A stretch of DNA of 35,011 bases from Bacilli bacterium (GTDB lineage: Bacteria; Bacillota_I; Bacilli_A; ML615J-28; CAG-313), in the NCBI GenBank assembly GCA_045653225.1, contig JAZOLP010000183.1, positions 1 to 35,011 of the forward strand, read 5' to 3'. The position numbers and the translations under genes are program-made. The notes beneath the pieces were generated by a model. It was not told where the DNA came from. It saw nothing but the letters and a program-made list of their open reading frames with translations, and did not search any database. Numbering within the stretch: the first letter of the stretch is position 1; the number at the start of each line of letters is the position of its first letter. Of this stretch, positions 1,000-24,050 are shown piece after piece.

Positions 1000-1617
1000 T
1001 TATTTTATTTTTGACTTTTTTTGATAAGCCATCATAATAAACCATAATATTACTAATATTTGGAATACAGCTGCCATAACATAAATTAATGCGTTATTTT
1101 TTAAATTGTTTAAATGAAGAATAATTTGTACACTTAAAACTAGACCCCAAACTATTCCTGAAACACAAATGCATCTAAATGTATTTTTATACCATAATGC
1201 AGCAAAAACCGTCAAAACAATAAAAAACACTGGTATTGCGATTATAAATGTTAACCAATTCGCATATGATGAAGTTGATGGAATAAGCATTAATGTAACA
1301 AATACTACAGTTGCGATAAACCATACTAGAATACTAGATAGTAATGTAACAAATAAATGATTTGCTGATTTGTTAGATTTTGGGTTAATCTGTATTTCTT
1401 TTTCATAAACCAATTCATTAATTGTTATTCCATATAATTCAGCAATTTTCTCTAAAGTGTATAAATCAGGTAAACTTTCTCCCCTTTCCCATTTTGAAAT
1501 TGCTTTATCAGAATAGCATAGTTTTTCAGCTAAATCAAGTTGTGTTAAATTGTTGATTTTTCTGTAGTTAATTAAATTTTTAGCTACAGTTTCTTTAAAT
1601 TGTTGTTCATTATTCAT
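1000..1617 (-). CDS. XRE/Cro-family HTH regulator with C-terminal transmembrane helices (probable start ATG at 1617, 205 aa)
   Basis: LTQLDLAEKLCYSDKAISKWERGESLPD HTH followed by about four hydrophobic segments; the ORF-track extension to 1698 runs through promoter DNA. Confidence 0.88.
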   Translation of the reverse strand: MNNEQQFKETVAKNLINYRKINNLTQLDLAEKLCYSDKAISKWERGESLPDLYTLEKIAELYGITINELVYEKEIQINPKSNKSANHLFVTLLSSILVWFIATVVFVTLMLIPSTSSYANWLTFIIAIPVFFIVLTVFAALWYKNTFRCICVSGIVWGLVLSVQIILHLNNLKNNALIYVMAAVFQILVILWFIMMAYQKKSKIK

Positions 1618-1623
1618 GCAACT

Positions 1624-1652
1624 ATTATACAAAAATATTGTAAAAAAAACAA
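1624..1652 (-). promoter_or_regulatory. promoter of the XRE gene, probably leaderless
   Basis: minus strand reads TTGTTT-17 bp-TATAAT-6 nt-ATG; no Shine-Dalgarno sequence. Confidence 0.55.
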
Positions 1653-1704
1653 ATTTAATGATATAAAAAATAATTGCTAATATAACTTTATATGCCATAA
1701 AATA

Positions 1705-1737
1705 TGGTATAATATAATAAATTAGTTTTAAAACTAA
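1705..1737 (+). promoter_or_regulatory. extended -10 promoter and palindromic operator of the marR-ABC operon
   Basis: TGGTATAAT (1705-1713), then perfect 16-bp palindrome TTAGTTTTAAAACTAA (1722-1737) just downstream of the inferred start site. Confidence 0.7.
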
Positions 1738-1757
1738 CTATTTTAAAGGAGAAGTAT

Positions 1758-2204
1758 ATGACAAAAGAACATATGCCTTATGGTGCGATAATTAACCATA
1801 TGAATAAGACTTTTAAATGTGCTTTTAAATCTGAGGCAGCTAAACATAACATTAATGCTACTTATGCAAATATTGTTATGACTCTAGCAAGAAACCCATT
1901 AGGTTTACCTCAAAATGATATAGCTGAAATAAATCATTTATCTGCTCCAACTGTAAGCTTAACTTTAAAACAAATGGAAGCATTAGGCTATATTACTAGA
2001 AAGGCAAGTGAAGAAGATAATAGAAAAACAATAGTATTATTAACTGATCTTGGATTTGAACTTGATGAAAAGATTAAAAAGTGTTTTCAAAATGTTGAAT
2101 CTAAATTAATTAAAAATATAAAAGCTGAAGATTTAATTCATTTTGAAAAAGTTTTAGAAATGATGAAAGAAAATTTACTAGAAGAAAAGGAGACAATTAA
2201 ATAA
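1758..2204 (+). CDS. MarR-family transcriptional regulator
   Basis: 148 aa; QNDIA..LSAPTVS..LKQMEALGYITR...DNRK winged-helix signature; stop overlaps next start (TAATG). Confidence 0.92.
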   Translation: MTKEHMPYGAIINHMNKTFKCAFKSEAAKHNINATYANIVMTLARNPLGLPQNDIAEINHLSAPTVSLTLKQMEALGYITRKASEEDNRKTIVLLTDLGFELDEKIKKCFQNVESKLIKNIKAEDLIHFEKVLEMMKENLLEEKETIK

Positions 2205-19460: not shown

Positions 19461-21161
19461 ATGGTAAATAAACAAAAAAACTTTTATAGTATTGCTGTTA
19501 TATTCTGTGTTATTGTTTTTGCTGCAATCATTTCTATAATTAGTCTAATAACTAATCCTAATAGTGGTCATGCGACACAGATTGCAACTCCTTTTGAGTT
19601 AAACGAGTCATGGTATGTTGTTGGTGACGATTCAGAAGTTGAATGGGATATGTTGCCTTATTATAATGAATATCGTTTTGAAGAATTCAAACTATATAAC
19701 TATTTACCAAATGATTTAAAAGATAGAAGTTGTATTTATTTAAAAACAAATTATCAATCTATTAAAATTGAAATAGAAGGATATGGAGTTATTTATGATG
19801 AAAAATCTTTTGATAATTTAGTGTTTGGATCTAATGTTAATGTTGTAACTCATTTCATCGAATTAGAACAAGAATATGCTGGTAAGAAAATCATTATTTC
19901 TTCTGATGAAGTTCAAGAATATTTATATCCAACGCTAGAACAGGTTCTTATTGCTGAAAAAGGCGATTTATTGCTAAACTTATTAATGGGAGCTTCAATT
20001 GATTTATTCTTTATTGGTGTAATCATTATTATTGGTTGTTTATTAATTATTTTAGCAATCTTATTAATTAAATATAAATCAGTTAAATATGTTGCGGATT
20101 GTTTCTGTTTAACAATATTTACGTTTATTTTCGCGATATGGATTTTCTCTAATGTTAGTGAATTATATATATTAGTTAATGATAACGCATTCTTCTTCCT
20201 GATATATATTCTCGCACTTTATATGTTGTTGCTACCTATCTATATTTTATTAAGAAATAAATGTACACATTTTATTAAATTATTCGATAGTTTATTTACA
20301 ACAATGGTATGTTTATTATTAAATAATTTAATACTTGCTGGAACTGGTGTGTGGTCACTAACAGAATCAATGATATTACTTCATATTGTAATTGCGATTT
20401 CTTATTCTTTGTGTGTGTTTGCTGTATTTGTTGAATATTTTAAACATAAAAATAGAGATATTTTAGCATATTTAATTTCATCGGTTGTTTTCTTTGTGTG
20501 TATAACATTTACTATTATTGCCTATTACTATCCAAATTTAAAATTAAATATCATTGATTATGATTTCTTCTTAAAATTTGCATTTGTAATATTTGTAATA
20601 TTAAATGGTATTGCATACATTAGACAAGTAATTATTTCTAGTTTAAAAACTAGTGAGTCTGCAATTTATCGTAAACTAGCATTTACTGATTTAATGACTG
20701 GCTTAGATAATAGAAGCTCATTTGATCATGATTTAAACACATTAGCACAAGAAATGTTTGATTATATAAGTATAATTGAATTTGATATTGATGGATTAAA
20801 ATCTGTAAATGATAATTATGGACACTCTGTTGGTGATGAGTTAATCAAAGAAGTTGCTTCTTCAATTAAAGAGATTTTTGGTAAATATAGTAAATGTTAT
20901 AGAATTGGTGGAGATGAATTTATAGTAATCACATTAAATGAAAATTCTACGTTTATTCAAACTTTGATTGATAAATTTAAAGAAGAGATTTCTAATAAGA
21001 TATTATCAAGTGGTTCAAAAATAAATGTATCGATTGGTTCAGCATTTGATGATGGTATTTTAAGTAAATATACTAATCTAACTAATCTGATTAATGTTAC
21101 AGATAGATTGATGTATGAAAATAAAAACATTAATAAAATGAATAATAATTTTGTAGAGTAA
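19461..21161 (+). CDS. membrane-bound diguanylate cyclase (extracellular domain, multi-TM region, GGDEF)
   Basis: TDLMTGLDNR, DIDGLKSVNDNYGHSVGD, RIGGDEF, SIG, ending MYENK; no RxxD I-site. Confidence 0.9.
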   Translation: MVNKQKNFYSIAVIFCVIVFAAIISIISLITNPNSGHATQIATPFELNESWYVVGDDSEVEWDMLPYYNEYRFEEFKLYNYLPNDLKDRSCIYLKTNYQSIKIEIEGYGVIYDEKSFDNLVFGSNVNVVTHFIELEQEYAGKKIIISSDEVQEYLYPTLEQVLIAEKGDLLLNLLMGASIDLFFIGVIIIIGCLLIILAILLIKYKSVKYVADCFCLTIFTFIFAIWIFSNVSELYILVNDNAFFFLIYILALYMLLLPIYILLRNKCTHFIKLFDSLFTTMVCLLLNNLILAGTGVWSLTESMILLHIVIAISYSLCVFAVFVEYFKHKNRDILAYLISSVVFFVCITFTIIAYYYPNLKLNIIDYDFFLKFAFVIFVILNGIAYIRQVIISSLKTSESAIYRKLAFTDLMTGLDNRSSFDHDLNTLAQEMFDYISIIEFDIDGLKSVNDNYGHSVGDELIKEVASSIKEIFGKYSKCYRIGGDEFIVITLNENSTFIQTLIDKFKEEISNKILSSGSKINVSIGSAFDDGILSKYTNLTNLINVTDRLMYENKNINKMNNNFVE

Positions 21162-21184
21162 AGGCTTTTTTACTCTACTTTTTT
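21153..21184 (+). terminator. intrinsic terminator
   Basis: GTAGAGTAAA/TTTACTCTAC stem followed by a T-run. Confidence 0.8.
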
Positions 21185-21264
21185 ATTAAAATTTTGTTAA
21201 TTTTATTGCATATTAAGTGCTAAAAACTTTTTTTTATTATATAATATTAGTACAAAAATATTTA

Positions 21265-21561
21265 AAAACATTGAAAAGAAGAGTAAATAATTAATTTTTT
21301 TATAGAGAGTCTTTGTTGGTGGAAATAAGATATTAAATGATTATTGAACATGGTCTTGGAGTTGGATTGTCGATATTTAGGCTTTCTCGGGTGCTCCCGT
21401 TATAGAGATAGAGTTTACAACTTAAAGTAGAATATTACCACTATTCTTATAACTTTAGGGATTGAACTTGATAAGGGTTAAATCGTGAGGTTTAACTGAA
21501 GAAAGGTGGTAACACGAAGTATATTCGTCCTTTTATTTTAAATAATAAAAGGACTTTTTTT
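21265..21561 (+). promoter_or_regulatory. T-box riboswitch, methionine specifier
   Basis: AGTA, AGAGAG and GGTGGAA stem I motifs; GAAC-ATG specifier (21350-21352); CCCGTTA; T-box AAAGGTGGTAACACG (21502-21516); terminator GTCCTTTTATT/AATAAAAGGAC plus T-run; lies upstream of metNIQ. Confidence 0.92.
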
Positions 21562-21584
21562 ATTAGAAAGGATGGTGTTATTCT

Positions 21585-22562
21585 TTGAGTGATTATCTAT
21601 TAGAAATAAAAAATTTATCAAAGAGTTTCGGAGAACATCGAGTTTTATCTAATATCAACTTAAAAATCAATAAAAAAGATGTTTATGGAATTTTAGGCTT
21701 ATCAGGTGCAGGTAAATCTACTTTAATAAGATGTATAAATGGTCTAGAAAAATTTGATGATGGAGAAATTTTATTTAAAGATAAAATAGTAACATTTGAT
21801 CGTGAATATCGTAAAAATGTTGCGATGATTTTCCAACAATTTAATTTATTAGATCAACGAACAGTTTTAAAAAATGTAGAACTTGCTGGAGAATTATTTA
21901 AAGACTGTAATAGACATGAAAAAGCTATAAAATATTTAAATCTTGTAGGATTGAGTGATAAACTTAATAGTTATCCGTCACAATTATCAGGTGGTCAAAA
22001 ACAAAGAGTTGCAATTGCAAGAGCATTAATGTCAGAACCTGAAATTTTATTATGCGATGAAGCTACTTCAGCACTTGACCCTGATACAACAAATCAAGTA
22101 CTTGCGTTATTAAAAGAACTAAATGAAAAATTAGGACTTACAATTATTATGATTTCACATCAAATGAATGTAATTGAAAAAATTTGTAATAAGGTAGCAA
22201 TTATTGATAATGCGAAAATTGTTGAAAGTGGTGAAACACAAGAGATTTTCTTATATCCAAAAACTGAGATTAGTAAAAAAATTATTTATTCTGGTCATAT
22301 TAATACAAAGAGTGATGATTCTAAATTACTTAAAGTAATATTTAATGGTGAACTTGATATGCCTTTAATTGCAAATATAGTTCAAGATTGTAATATTGTT
22401 TTATCTGTAATTTATGCGGATTCAAAAGTTGTAAATGGGCATGTTTTTGGTCAATTAATATTCAAAATGCCTGCTGATATTAATGATGTTTTAAAACTTC
22501 GTAAATATCTAGAATTAAAGAATATTAACTATAAGGAGGTGGATGCAAGTGAGTTTTTCTGA
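21585..22562 (+). CDS. metN: methionine ABC transporter ATP-binding subunit (TTG start)
   Basis: GLSGAGKS, LSGGQKQR, LCDEATSALDP, C-terminal NIL-like domain; Met T-box upstream. Confidence 0.92.
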   Translation: MSDYLLEIKNLSKSFGEHRVLSNINLKINKKDVYGILGLSGAGKSTLIRCINGLEKFDDGEILFKDKIVTFDREYRKNVAMIFQQFNLLDQRTVLKNVELAGELFKDCNRHEKAIKYLNLVGLSDKLNSYPSQLSGGQKQRVAIARALMSEPEILLCDEATSALDPDTTNQVLALLKELNEKLGLTIIMISHQMNVIEKICNKVAIIDNAKIVESGETQEIFLYPKTEISKKIIYSGHINTKSDDSKLLKVIFNGELDMPLIANIVQDCNIVLSVIYADSKVVNGHVFGQLIFKMPADINDVLKLRKYLELKNINYKEVDASEFF

Positions 22563-23217
22563 GATTTTTAAAATGGTTTTAGAAACTCTAGGAATGACAT
22601 TTATTTCATGTACACTTGCATATATATTTGGCCTTCCAATGGGTATTTTATTAAATGTAACTTCGAAAAAAGGAATTATGCCATGCAAATGGCTCAACAC
22701 AATCTTAAGTTTAATTATTAATATTTTAAGATCAATTCCATGTTTAATTATTGTTGTATTATTAATGCAAACAGTTCGTGATATTTTTGGTAGAGCCGTT
22801 GGAGAATGGTATACAATTATTATTCCATTATTTGCAACTTCATTTGGATTTGTTTCTAGAATGGTAGAACAATCTTTATCAGAAGTTGATAATGGTAAAA
22901 TTGAAGCTATCGTTTCACTTGGTGCTACAAAATTCCAAATTATTACAAAAGTGCTTTTACCAGAAACTAAGGCTTCATTAATTTCTGGTCTTGCTGTAAC
23001 TTTAGTTTCTATACTAGGTTACACATCATTCGCATATAATATTGGTGCGGGTGGATTAATTGCTGGTATATGGTCATTCTATTCAAAGAATACCGGTAAT
23101 TATTTAAGTGAACCATTCTTCTGGATTATGATTATTATTGTTATTTTAATTGTTCAAGGTATCCAAGAATTAGGTTTGTTAATTTCGAAAAAATTAGATA
23201 AAAGGAGAATATTATAA
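22549..23217 (+). CDS. metI: methionine ABC transporter permease (probable GTG start)
   Basis: ETL.M, NILRSIP, EA..SLGA, LLPE, GAGGL motifs; AAGGAGGT is 8 nt before GTG 22549. Confidence 0.9.
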   Translation: MSFSEIFKMVLETLGMTFISCTLAYIFGLPMGILLNVTSKKGIMPCKWLNTILSLIINILRSIPCLIIVVLLMQTVRDIFGRAVGEWYTIIIPLFATSFGFVSRMVEQSLSEVDNGKIEAIVSLGATKFQIITKVLLPETKASLISGLAVTLVSILGYTSFAYNIGAGGLIAGIWSFYSKNTGNYLSEPFFWIMIIIVILIVQGIQELGLLISKKLDKRRIL

Positions 23218-24050
23218 TGAAAAAAAGAATATTAAGTTTAATTGCAATATTAATTTTATGTTTAACTGTAGGTCTTACAGGTTGTAAAAAGGATGAAAAA
23301 ACAATTTATGTTTGTGCAAGTGAATTACCACATGCTGATATTTTGGAAAATGCTGTTGCTCCAATTTTAAAAGAACAAGGATATACTTTAAAAGTTACAG
23401 TTATTGACTGGACAATTCAAAATAATGCTGTTGCAAATAAAGATTATGATGCAAACTATTTCCAACATGTTCCTTACCTAGAATTATATGAAGGTGATAT
23501 TAAATTATTTGCTACATGTAAAGTTCACTATGAACCTCTTGGAATTTATAGAGGAAAAGCTACTGGCGAATTAACTGAAGGTAAAACATTTGCTATTTGT
23601 AACGATGAATCAAACGCTATTAGAGCTTTAGAATTATTAAAAGATAAAGGTGTTATTGAAACTCTTCCTGTTGATGCTGAAGGTAAATTAACAATCACTG
23701 GTTCTAATTGGACTGCTGAAAATGGTGTAACTGTTACTTTAGTTGCTGAAGAATTATTAGCTGCTTCAATGCCTGATTTCGATTTCGTATGTCTTCCTTG
23801 TAATACAGCTTTAACTGGTAATGTTGATGCTTCATTAAAAGTTGCTAAAGAAGATAATGCTGAATTAGTTGCTGCTAAAGCAAATATAATTGCAGCAAGA
23901 GTAGAAGATTATAAAAATGATGCTGAATATAAGGCAAAAATTGATGCTTTAACTGAAGCTGTTCTTTCAAAAGCTGTATCAGATTACGTAAATCAAAAAT
24001 ATAGTGGTGCTATTACTTGTGATAGTAGCTCACAAATTGATTTAAGATAA
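23217..24050 (+). CDS. metQ: methionine ABC transporter substrate-binding lipoprotein (NlpA family)
   Basis: LTGC lipobox, PHADIL, DANYFQHVPYL, VHYEPLGIY, ND.SN..RAL. Confidence 0.92.
   Translation: MKKRILSLIAILILCLTVGLTGCKKDEKTIYVCASELPHADILENAVAPILKEQGYTLKVTVIDWTIQNNAVANKDYDANYFQHVPYLELYEGDIKLFATCKVHYEPLGIYRGKATGELTEGKTFAICNDESNAIRALELLKDKGVIETLPVDAEGKLTITGSNWTAENGVTVTLVAEELLAASMPDFDFVCLPCNTALTGNVDASLKVAKEDNAELVAAKANIIAARVEDYKNDAEYKAKIDALTEAVLSKAVSDYVNQKYSGAITCDSSSQIDLR

Follow-up and report, generated by a model that had tools for sequence, protein, structure and literature searches.

The 35,011-nucleotide (nt) window analysed here is contig C183 (JAZOLP010000183.1) of the assembly of an uncultured gut bacterium of the Bacilli, 1.71 Mb in size, which comprises 207 contigs and is 91% complete. 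On its forward strand, a T-box riboswitch leader specific for methionine precedes the genes of a methionine ABC importer. The window's own genome is called G000 throughout, and other labels beginning with G or L stand for genomes and leaders used for comparison. The regulated operon downstream of the leader (21585..24050) consists of metN (21585-22562, with a TTG start at 21585), metI (22543-23217) and a metQ-like lipoprotein gene (23217-24050), all on the plus strand. Their products match the NCBIfam models for MetN (TIGR02314, 5.7e-82), MetI (NF008049, 4.9e-39) and MetQ (NF008285, 1.2e-13), each below the equivalog cut-off. The ribosome-binding region AGAAAGGAUGGUG and the TTG start together span 21564..21587, as placed from the open reading frame list and RNAduplex. 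The subject of this report is a 59-nt hairpin in the leader, hereafter hairpin X, whose apical loop and 3′ arm are complementary to the leader's own T-box strand, and which we tentatively interpret as a decoy acting in cis.

The leader is a complete transcriptional Met T-box that controls the methionine ABC importer. Positions 21262-21535 (+) align to model positions 1-219 of RF00230 with 92.6 bits (E 5.6e-21), 0.4 bits below the Rfam gathering score of 93, and no match in the window reaches the gathering threshold. The score falls just under the cut-off because of the cost of a 58-nt insertion, and default Rfam annotation of the genome therefore misses the leader. The assembly holds ten T-box matches; besides the Met leader, three more lie below the cut-off. 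Six other weak Rfam matches at the E-value threshold (PyrR, small nucleolar RNAs, microRNAs) were dismissed as noise, the PyrR-family match scoring 24.8 bits (E 0.36) where the cut-off is 54.

Stem I (21262..21364 by the RF00230 alignment) comprises the kink-turn (K-turn), specifier loop, AG bulge and distal loop. In the covariance model alignment the specifier loop reads GAA-C-AUG-G (21346-21353), with the S-turn GAA at 21346-21348 and the specifier AUG at 21350-21352, followed by G; the specifier is located in GAACAUGG. It fits the amino acid of the downstream MetN, MetI and MetQ-like proteins, in agreement with the first-pass annotation of this DNA, which had called the element a Met T-box. 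In Stem I, GAACAUGGUCUUGGAG is invariant across the seven related leaders described below, and AGAGA with the distal loop UUGGUGGAAA is identical at 29-30 of 30 positions in six relatives. The same alignment places Stem II at about 21365-21388 and Stem IIA, with the F-box CCGUUA that ends at 21402, at 21388-21402. A probable IIB partner, GAGA at 21405-21408, was recognised by eye, the leaders showing both UCUC/GAGA and UCGC/GCGA, and the Stem II/IIA/IIB region as a whole covers 21365..21410.

Downstream of hairpin X, the predicted fold contains the purine string GAUAAG (21470-21475), a string (GAURAGG) that belongs to the discriminator domain according to excerpts of PMC7583486, and Stem III (21476-21497; 9 base pairs (bp), loop GUGA), with the linker AAG at 21499-21501. 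The antiterminator (21502..21533) is supported by the covariance model alignment and by a fold of 21502-21534 at -5.1 kcal/mol. It is built from helix A1 (5 bp, 21502-21506/21529-21533, with 5′ strand AAAGG), a 7-nt bulge UGGUAAC (21507-21513) whose UGGU (21507-21510) lies next to helix A1, and helix A2 (5 bp, 21514-21518/21524-21528). A terminator scan identified an intrinsic terminator at 21527..21561 (11-bp stem at 21527-21554, then a U tract; -12.7 kcal/mol), which overlaps the 3′ strand of the antiterminator, including that of A1.

Hairpin X (21411..21469) folds alone into three stacked stems: a basal stem GAGTTTA/TGAACTT (21411-21417/21463-21469), a middle stem CTTAAAGT/ACTTTAGG (21420-21428/21452-21459) and an apical stem AGAATA/TATTCT (21429-21434/21442-21447) closed by the loop TTACCAC (21435-21441), in which ACCA occupies 21437-21440. 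Every sequence and coordinate that the first-pass annotation had given for this hairpin, and for the complement between its loop and the bulge, was recovered. The isolated hairpin reaches -14.7 kcal/mol (z-score -2.7; 2 of 200 shuffles were as good) and is also formed in the minimum-free-energy (MFE) structure of the full leader. BLAST of the 59 nt against the whole assembly returned the hairpin itself and chance matches of at most 20 nt, and no second copy; the stretch is not a repeat, and an origin from a repeat or mobile element was rejected.

Whether hairpin X is a new insert, as first supposed, can be judged against a larger collection of Met leaders. The window's genus holds 11 genomes and its family 49. 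Leaders were gathered by BLAST in 60 relatives, by a 19-nt specifier-region pattern in genome_contigs, of which 80 of at least 119 stretches were taken as a convenience sample, and by a loop-agnostic 22-nt pattern. The resulting sample holds 70 distinct segments from F-box to T-box, seven from the window's genus and 63 from outside it. The RF00230 alignment does treat hairpin X as an insertion, at the site originally proposed between CCGUUA and Stem III, and the Rfam consensus has Stem III only in this interval. Yet at least two hairpins are predicted between F-box and T-box strand in 66 of the 70 leaders, with a shorter hairpin at the same site. Elsewhere this extra linker hairpin usually has the base GAGUAU...GUACUY, followed directly by the purine string GAURAGG. 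The distance from F-box to T-box ranges from 20 to 144 nt among the 70 leaders, and the linker hairpin measures 56-62 nt in six leaders of the window's genus and 45 nt in the seventh. Hairpin X is thus a lengthened form of a family hairpin found at that site in most sampled Met T-boxes, and did not arise there de novo.

The apical loop TTACCAC is perfectly complementary to GTGGTAA (21506-21512), as first reported, but this match had been taken as 7 nt long, and pairing in fact runs on through the 3′ arm to 13 bp. The decoy segment (21435..21448) consists of the loop UUACCAC, the 3′ arm and one further base (21442-21448); its target (21499..21512) consists of the linker AAG, the A1 5′ strand and the bulge bases UGGUAA. 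Both were delimited from pair probabilities and RNAduplex. In the long-range helix, 21435-21442 (UUACCACU) pairs with 21505-21512 (GGUGGUAA), a 1x1 A/A mismatch follows at 21443/21504, and 21444-21448 (UUCUU) pairs with 21499-21503 (AAGAA). The 13 pairs, interrupted by this one mismatch, have probabilities of 0.54-0.87 in the nested ensemble of G000, and a weaker third pairing segment continues into the 3′ arm of Stem III. Loop and arm together reach a duplex energy of -14.8 kcal/mol (RNAduplex), and the loop alone -7.9. By eye, the 5′ arm (GAAUAU) could also pair with the A2 loop region; this pairing is not kept in G010 and was dropped.

Nowhere in the leader does the decoy segment find a better target than the T-box strand. 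Second is the ribosome-binding region, where 21439-21448 can pair with 21567-21576 (10 bp, -11.7 kcal/mol). The decoy segment also pairs with the Shine-Dalgarno (SD) sequence because the latter resembles the T-box strand: 21564-21578 (AGAAAGGAUGGUG) is nearly the same string as 21498-21512 (AGAAAGGUGGUAA). A translational side effect of this second pairing is possible. As for the SD itself, it takes the unusual form GGAUGGUG in the five leaders that have CACUAUUCUU, whereas it reads GGGAGGUG in G009 and GGAGGG in G010.

The chance expectation for such a match was gauged in several ways. The heptamer TTACCAC occurs 161 times in the 1.71-Mb assembly, or about 1e-4 per position, and a complement of at least 7 nt that includes UGG, anywhere between F-box and T-box strand, arises in about 0.4% of shuffled leaders. 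Of 3000 dinucleotide-shuffled linker regions, 5 reached the energy of -14.8 kcal/mol, against none of 5000 hairpin-preserving randomisations, in which the loop was random and the apical pairs were permuted or flipped. When the stem was permuted around the real loop, an extension as strong arose in 49 of 3000 cases. Compared with an exact reverse complement of 21499-21512, the decoy segment differs at 2 of 14 positions, and its complementarity is the strongest among the 70 distinct Met leaders.

Energies and ensembles were calculated with nearest-neighbour nested models, whose scope is nested structure, with pseudoknots and kissing contacts falling outside it. Within these models two terminated states are isoenergetic: hairpin X with Stem III and terminator at -40.1 kcal/mol, and the alternative helix with terminator at -40.5 kcal/mol. 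The antiterminator state lies at -28.9 kcal/mol. The alternative helix occupies four of the five A1 5′-strand bases (21502, 21503, 21505 and 21506) and six of the seven bulge bases. Since it uses the A1 5′ strand, it is mutually exclusive with the antiterminator. Its pair probabilities rise to 0.76-0.99 in G000, G003 and G006, and in G003 and G006 it is the MFE structure, with Stem III left intact.

Six of the seven related leaders retain the loop core as UACCAC or, in one case, UGCCAC. The apical loop reads UUACCAC in G000, G003 and G006, UACCAC in L168 (from a metagenome contig), AAUACCAC in G010 and UGCCAC in G005, where an A-to-G change, the single loop substitution among the loop-bearing leaders, still permits pairing with UGGU through G.U. 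The seventh, G009, has no apical stem-loop, and its bulge is UGGUACC. The same three-tier fold is predicted in six leaders. MAFFT alignments of the hairpins misplace the loop, and changes of stem pairs were read by eye from the individual folds: the middle stem shows A-U to U-A in G003 and G006, and the apical stem of G010 shows G-C to A-U plus one gained pair around a retained UACCAC. The G010 leader (L016, about 1500-1830, minus strand) precedes a 250-amino-acid (aa) ABC ATPase instead of the 325-aa MetN, and its Stem III and terminator differ; it seems that the 5′ two-thirds of the leader has been reused before another transporter.

The background against which the loop has persisted can be gauged from metN, where four-fold sites of G000 are 45-53% identical to those of G003, G006, G005 and G009. 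The 19-nt apical hairpin is nevertheless identical to that of G000 at 17-19 of 19 positions in G003, G006, G005 and L168, whereas the middle stem is changed at 7 of 17 positions in G003 and 6 of 17 in G006. By the same four-fold sites G009 adjoins G006 (81% identical), and the missing loop in G009 is therefore most simply a recent loss. Relative to the loop-bearing G003 and G006, G009 has lost the apical hairpin and carries two changes in the T-box strand and two in the SD. We considered this as a natural experiment and rejected it: the G006 and G009 leaders differ at 56 aligned positions plus gaps, and the changes fit the background rate.

The z-score of complementarity between linker and T-box strand is -4.1 to -4.4 in G000, G003, G006 and L168, and -1.9, -1.75 and -1.2 in G005, G009 and G010, respectively. 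Outside the genus, the 62 leaders long enough to be scored (one of 63 was too short) have a mean z of +0.23 and a median of +0.42, with one of 62 below -2; the tendency in ordinary Met T-boxes is thus to avoid a match of this kind. No hairpin of this type occurs in the other nine T-boxes of G000. Eight of these have a clear bulge, which reads UGGUACC or UGGUAUC, and the weakest-fitting one, L009, is without a clear bulge. A scan of metagenomes with the loop-agnostic pattern gave five stretches, namely one new T-box variant (L168) and four unrelated sequences, and in genome_contigs the same pattern gave five already-known leaders and nothing further.

Two side observations concern complementarity in other leaders. 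In L107, L070, L092 and L130, a set of mutually related Met leaders from genome_contigs, the linker hairpin has a 3′ arm (CUGCCGCUG) that can pair with GGUGGUA via several G.U pairs at -10.2 to -11.8 kcal/mol (z -1.5 to -2.6), a weaker and possibly independent case of the same kind. In L182, from another genus (G020:C12:20602-20688), UACCACCUU on the 3′ side of Stem I is a perfect 9-nt complement of the leader's own AAGGUGGUA. By its sequence the element resembles a Thr specifier, ACC, with A-CC after it; if the specifier is indeed Thr, Thr T-boxes may carry such complementarity by necessity.

Tentatively, and with rather less than an even chance of being right, we read hairpin X as a decoy in cis, or anti-antiterminator, rather than an activating mimic of tRNA, because the long helix uses the A1 5′ strand and because an internal ACCA is without a free 3′ end. 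The exposed loop would act as a toehold and pair with G-UGGUAA once the T-box strand has been transcribed. Pairing would then spread into the 3′ arm, open the 6-bp apical stem and give the 13-bp helix over the A1 5′ strand and the bulge, with the result that the tRNA 3′ end would be blocked, the antiterminator prevented and the terminator formed. The outcome would be less tRNA-independent read-through, and more uncharged tRNA-Met, or faster binding, would be needed to turn metNIQ on. In a variant of this scheme, tRNA docked on Stem I and Stem II would keep the hairpin off the bulge, and the decoy would act on tRNA-free leaders only. Slightly more doubtful is the fuller proposal of a third, tRNA-free conformer, in which the toehold loop captures the bulge and strand invasion leads to a 13-bp anti-antiterminator. 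Uncharged tRNA would then have to outrace or displace the decoy, which would amount to a built-in kinetic gate and to the first anti-antiterminator reported for the T-box class.

An ACCA displayed in a loop invites a different explanation, namely that it pairs with UGGU in the folded antiterminator and stabilises it as an acceptor end would, giving tRNA-independent or tRNA-assisted read-through. The match of ACCA to UGGU is exact, six pairs (UUACCA/UGGUAA) could form without touching A1, and the loop core is conserved in six of seven leaders, but we consider this explanation improbable. Excerpts of PMC7583486 describe a snug pocket for the tRNA 3′ end, in which a sieve rejects any bulk, even a phosphate, or glycine, and stacking of A76 on helix A1 stabilises the ON state and drives the switch. 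The ACCA of hairpin X is internal, A21440 being followed by C21441 and the stem, with no free 2′,3′-diol 3′ end; given that the described sieve rejects a 3′-phosphate, the loop therefore cannot act as an uncharged end, and we infer that an internal ACCA, if paired, behaves as a blocker. Furthermore, the seventh pair and the 5-bp extension invade helix A1, the OFF state offers 7 to 13 bp where the ON state offers at most 6, and the strict conservation of Stem I, specifier and terminator argues that tRNA dependence has been kept. The first-pass annotation had proposed that the loop mimics the tRNA end and either competes with tRNA or stabilises the antiterminator; of these options, competition is the more likely. 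The loop might also be conserved for another partner, such as the bound tRNA-Met, a protein or the metN ribosome-binding site (translational masking), with its match to the T-box strand incidental, and this we regard as unlikely. The pairing of loop and 3′ arm with the SD region would speak for it, yet the T-box strand is the better target by 3 kcal/mol, and G010 retains the loop although its SD differs. Among the 22 tRNA genes, GUGGUA occurs solely in the one CAU-anticodon gene found in the assembly, roughly at the D-loop, but G18 and G19 of the D-loop are buried in the tRNA elbow, which counts against a contact between loop and tRNA. No protein candidate was seen. Most relatives conserve the entire hairpin, internal loops included, and the authors of a study of the Staphylococcus aureus met leader (PMC7913692) suggest a contact with methionyl-tRNAs, or discrimination between them, as a possible role of stem-loops inserted at the same site.

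Harder to set aside, if still on the unlikely side, is a neutral expansion at an insertion-tolerant site, in which the apical part arose, for example, as an inverted copy of the T-box strand and persists as a harmless relic, mostly locked in its own stem. Hairpin length at the site varies widely, as the F-box to T-box distances show, and the long-spaced L083, L088 and L159 (133-144 nt) are without complementarity (z -0.99, +1.21 and +0.48). The apical part is lost in G009, the extension is eroded in G005 and G010, and two differences from an exact reverse complement are what an inverted duplication would give. Very many windows were scanned, moreover, and rare coincidences get picked up. On the other hand, a relic should have decayed at the divergence seen in metN, where instead the apical hairpin has outlasted the middle stem; G010 has rebuilt the stem and kept UACCAC; and an exposed decoy without effect is unlikely where other Met leaders tend to avoid complementarity. 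Several further observations weigh against the decoy interpretation itself. The related leaders number seven in the collections searched and all are kin, and the leader is well conserved throughout (15-21 of 23 positions identical in the spacer to the start codon, 21-26 of 32 in the 5′ flank), so that conservation of the loop is only moderately informative. Although six of the seven related leaders keep the loop core, G009 has lost it, and it is absent from all 63 leaders outside the genus: none of these distinct Met leaders has a complement of at least 6 nt to its own bulge, the maximum being 5 nt, inside a stem. An order-wide pattern search in 106 genomes found no further hairpin-loop case beyond G000, G003, G006 and G010; the pattern matched 15 genomes, four of the matches being the hairpin loop, and a backwards control pattern was about as frequent. 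Since G009 keeps its T-box without the apical hairpin, the latter is dispensable. Four of the seven leaders have the extension beyond the loop: it is absent in G010, and in G005 it is weakened to -9.9 kcal/mol by a G-to-A change opposite C together with the A-to-G change in the loop. For G005, L168 and G010 the hairpin stays closed in the nested ensemble (pairing probability at most 0.07), and a kiss between loop and strand could be the sole form possible there. For such a kiss the closed 22-bp hairpin, whose base abuts the discriminator, must fold back. Finally, covariation, for which the first-pass annotation had asked, is impossible, as GGUGGUA is invariant in all T-boxes, and the proposed pairing draws on complementarity and conservation.

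The surroundings of the leader and the tRNA genes of the assembly were also surveyed. The upstream gene (19461-21178) encodes a 566-aa GGDEF-domain protein (TIGR00254, 1.5e-25) unrelated to the T-box and has its own terminator at 21153-21178. A promoter scan of this strand 5′ of the T-box found no good -35/-10 pair. A TATAAT at 21240-21245, noted by eye within 21206-21245, is conserved in G003, G006 and G009, and the nearest TTGCAT (21206-21211) lies 28 nt upstream of it. The single CAU-anticodon tRNA gene found in the assembly (C136:9671-9745, minus strand) lacks an encoded CCA; 20 of the 21 other tRNA genes found end in CCA. The UGGU of the bulge predicts A73, and in this tRNA the discriminator is A or G according to the framing chosen for the acceptor stem. 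An elongator tRNA-Met gene was not found in the 91%-complete assembly.

Known T-box logic has two states, terminator and antiterminator, decided by the tRNA 3′ end, and T-boxes thereby read both the identity and the charging of a tRNA. If the decoy interpretation is true, a natural T-box with its own competitor for the acceptor bulge would add a third state and would show how the threshold or timing of sensing can be set in cis. At least one lineage-specific linker insertion would thereby gain a function, in a class of elements with no assigned role even in the well-studied S. aureus met leader. The arrangement would further offer a compact natural template for engineered RNA switches, combining a toehold loop with a stem-locked extension. 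Among the papers open to our literature search, which excluded subscription-only ones, none describes a T-box with an intramolecular decoy of the acceptor end or with an anti-antiterminator.

Several known systems invite comparison. With canonical transcriptional T-boxes (RF00230; the Bacillus subtilis tyrS type) the leader has all core elements in common and aligns over the full length, and its UGGU would pair with the ACCA end. Where the RF00230 consensus has about 15 unpaired bases, however, this leader has a 59-nt hairpin with a 13-bp complement to the T-box strand. In S-box (SAM-I) leaders and the pyr leaders controlled by PyrR, the 5′ strand of the antiterminator is captured by a segment upstream of it, which leads to termination and gives three mutually exclusive structures. 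Those anti-antiterminators are stabilised by a ligand or a protein, whereas no such effector is known for hairpin X. A mechanistic analogy is offered by CopA/CopT and RNA I/RNA II, in which an exposed 6-8-nt loop nucleates pairing that can spread into the stem. There two RNAs meet in trans, whereas the partners in this leader belong to a single RNA and are separated by 64 nt.

Among described cases, the S. aureus metICFE-mdh met leader (PMC7913692) comes nearest, with extra stem-loops at the same site. As far as the excerpts of that article go, its insert is 150 nt long, forms three stem-loops (L I-III) and is called staphylococci-specific by the authors. L I has a 7-nt apical loop, and the word stem 'complementar' is absent from the main text as excerpted. 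Compared by description, the position of the insertion is all that hairpin X shares with L I-III. Stem Sa of staphylococcal glyS T-boxes, as described in excerpts of PMC9177973, is likewise a lineage-specific insertion and tunes read-through and tRNA choice; on that description, lineage-specific T-box add-ons can therefore be functional. Stem Sa lies in the antiterminator/terminator domain (helix A2), whereas hairpin X lies in the linker, and the excerpted text does not report Stem Sa as a competitor for the bulge. Set beside these systems, the leader is a T-box as a member of its family, and the add-on is what differs.

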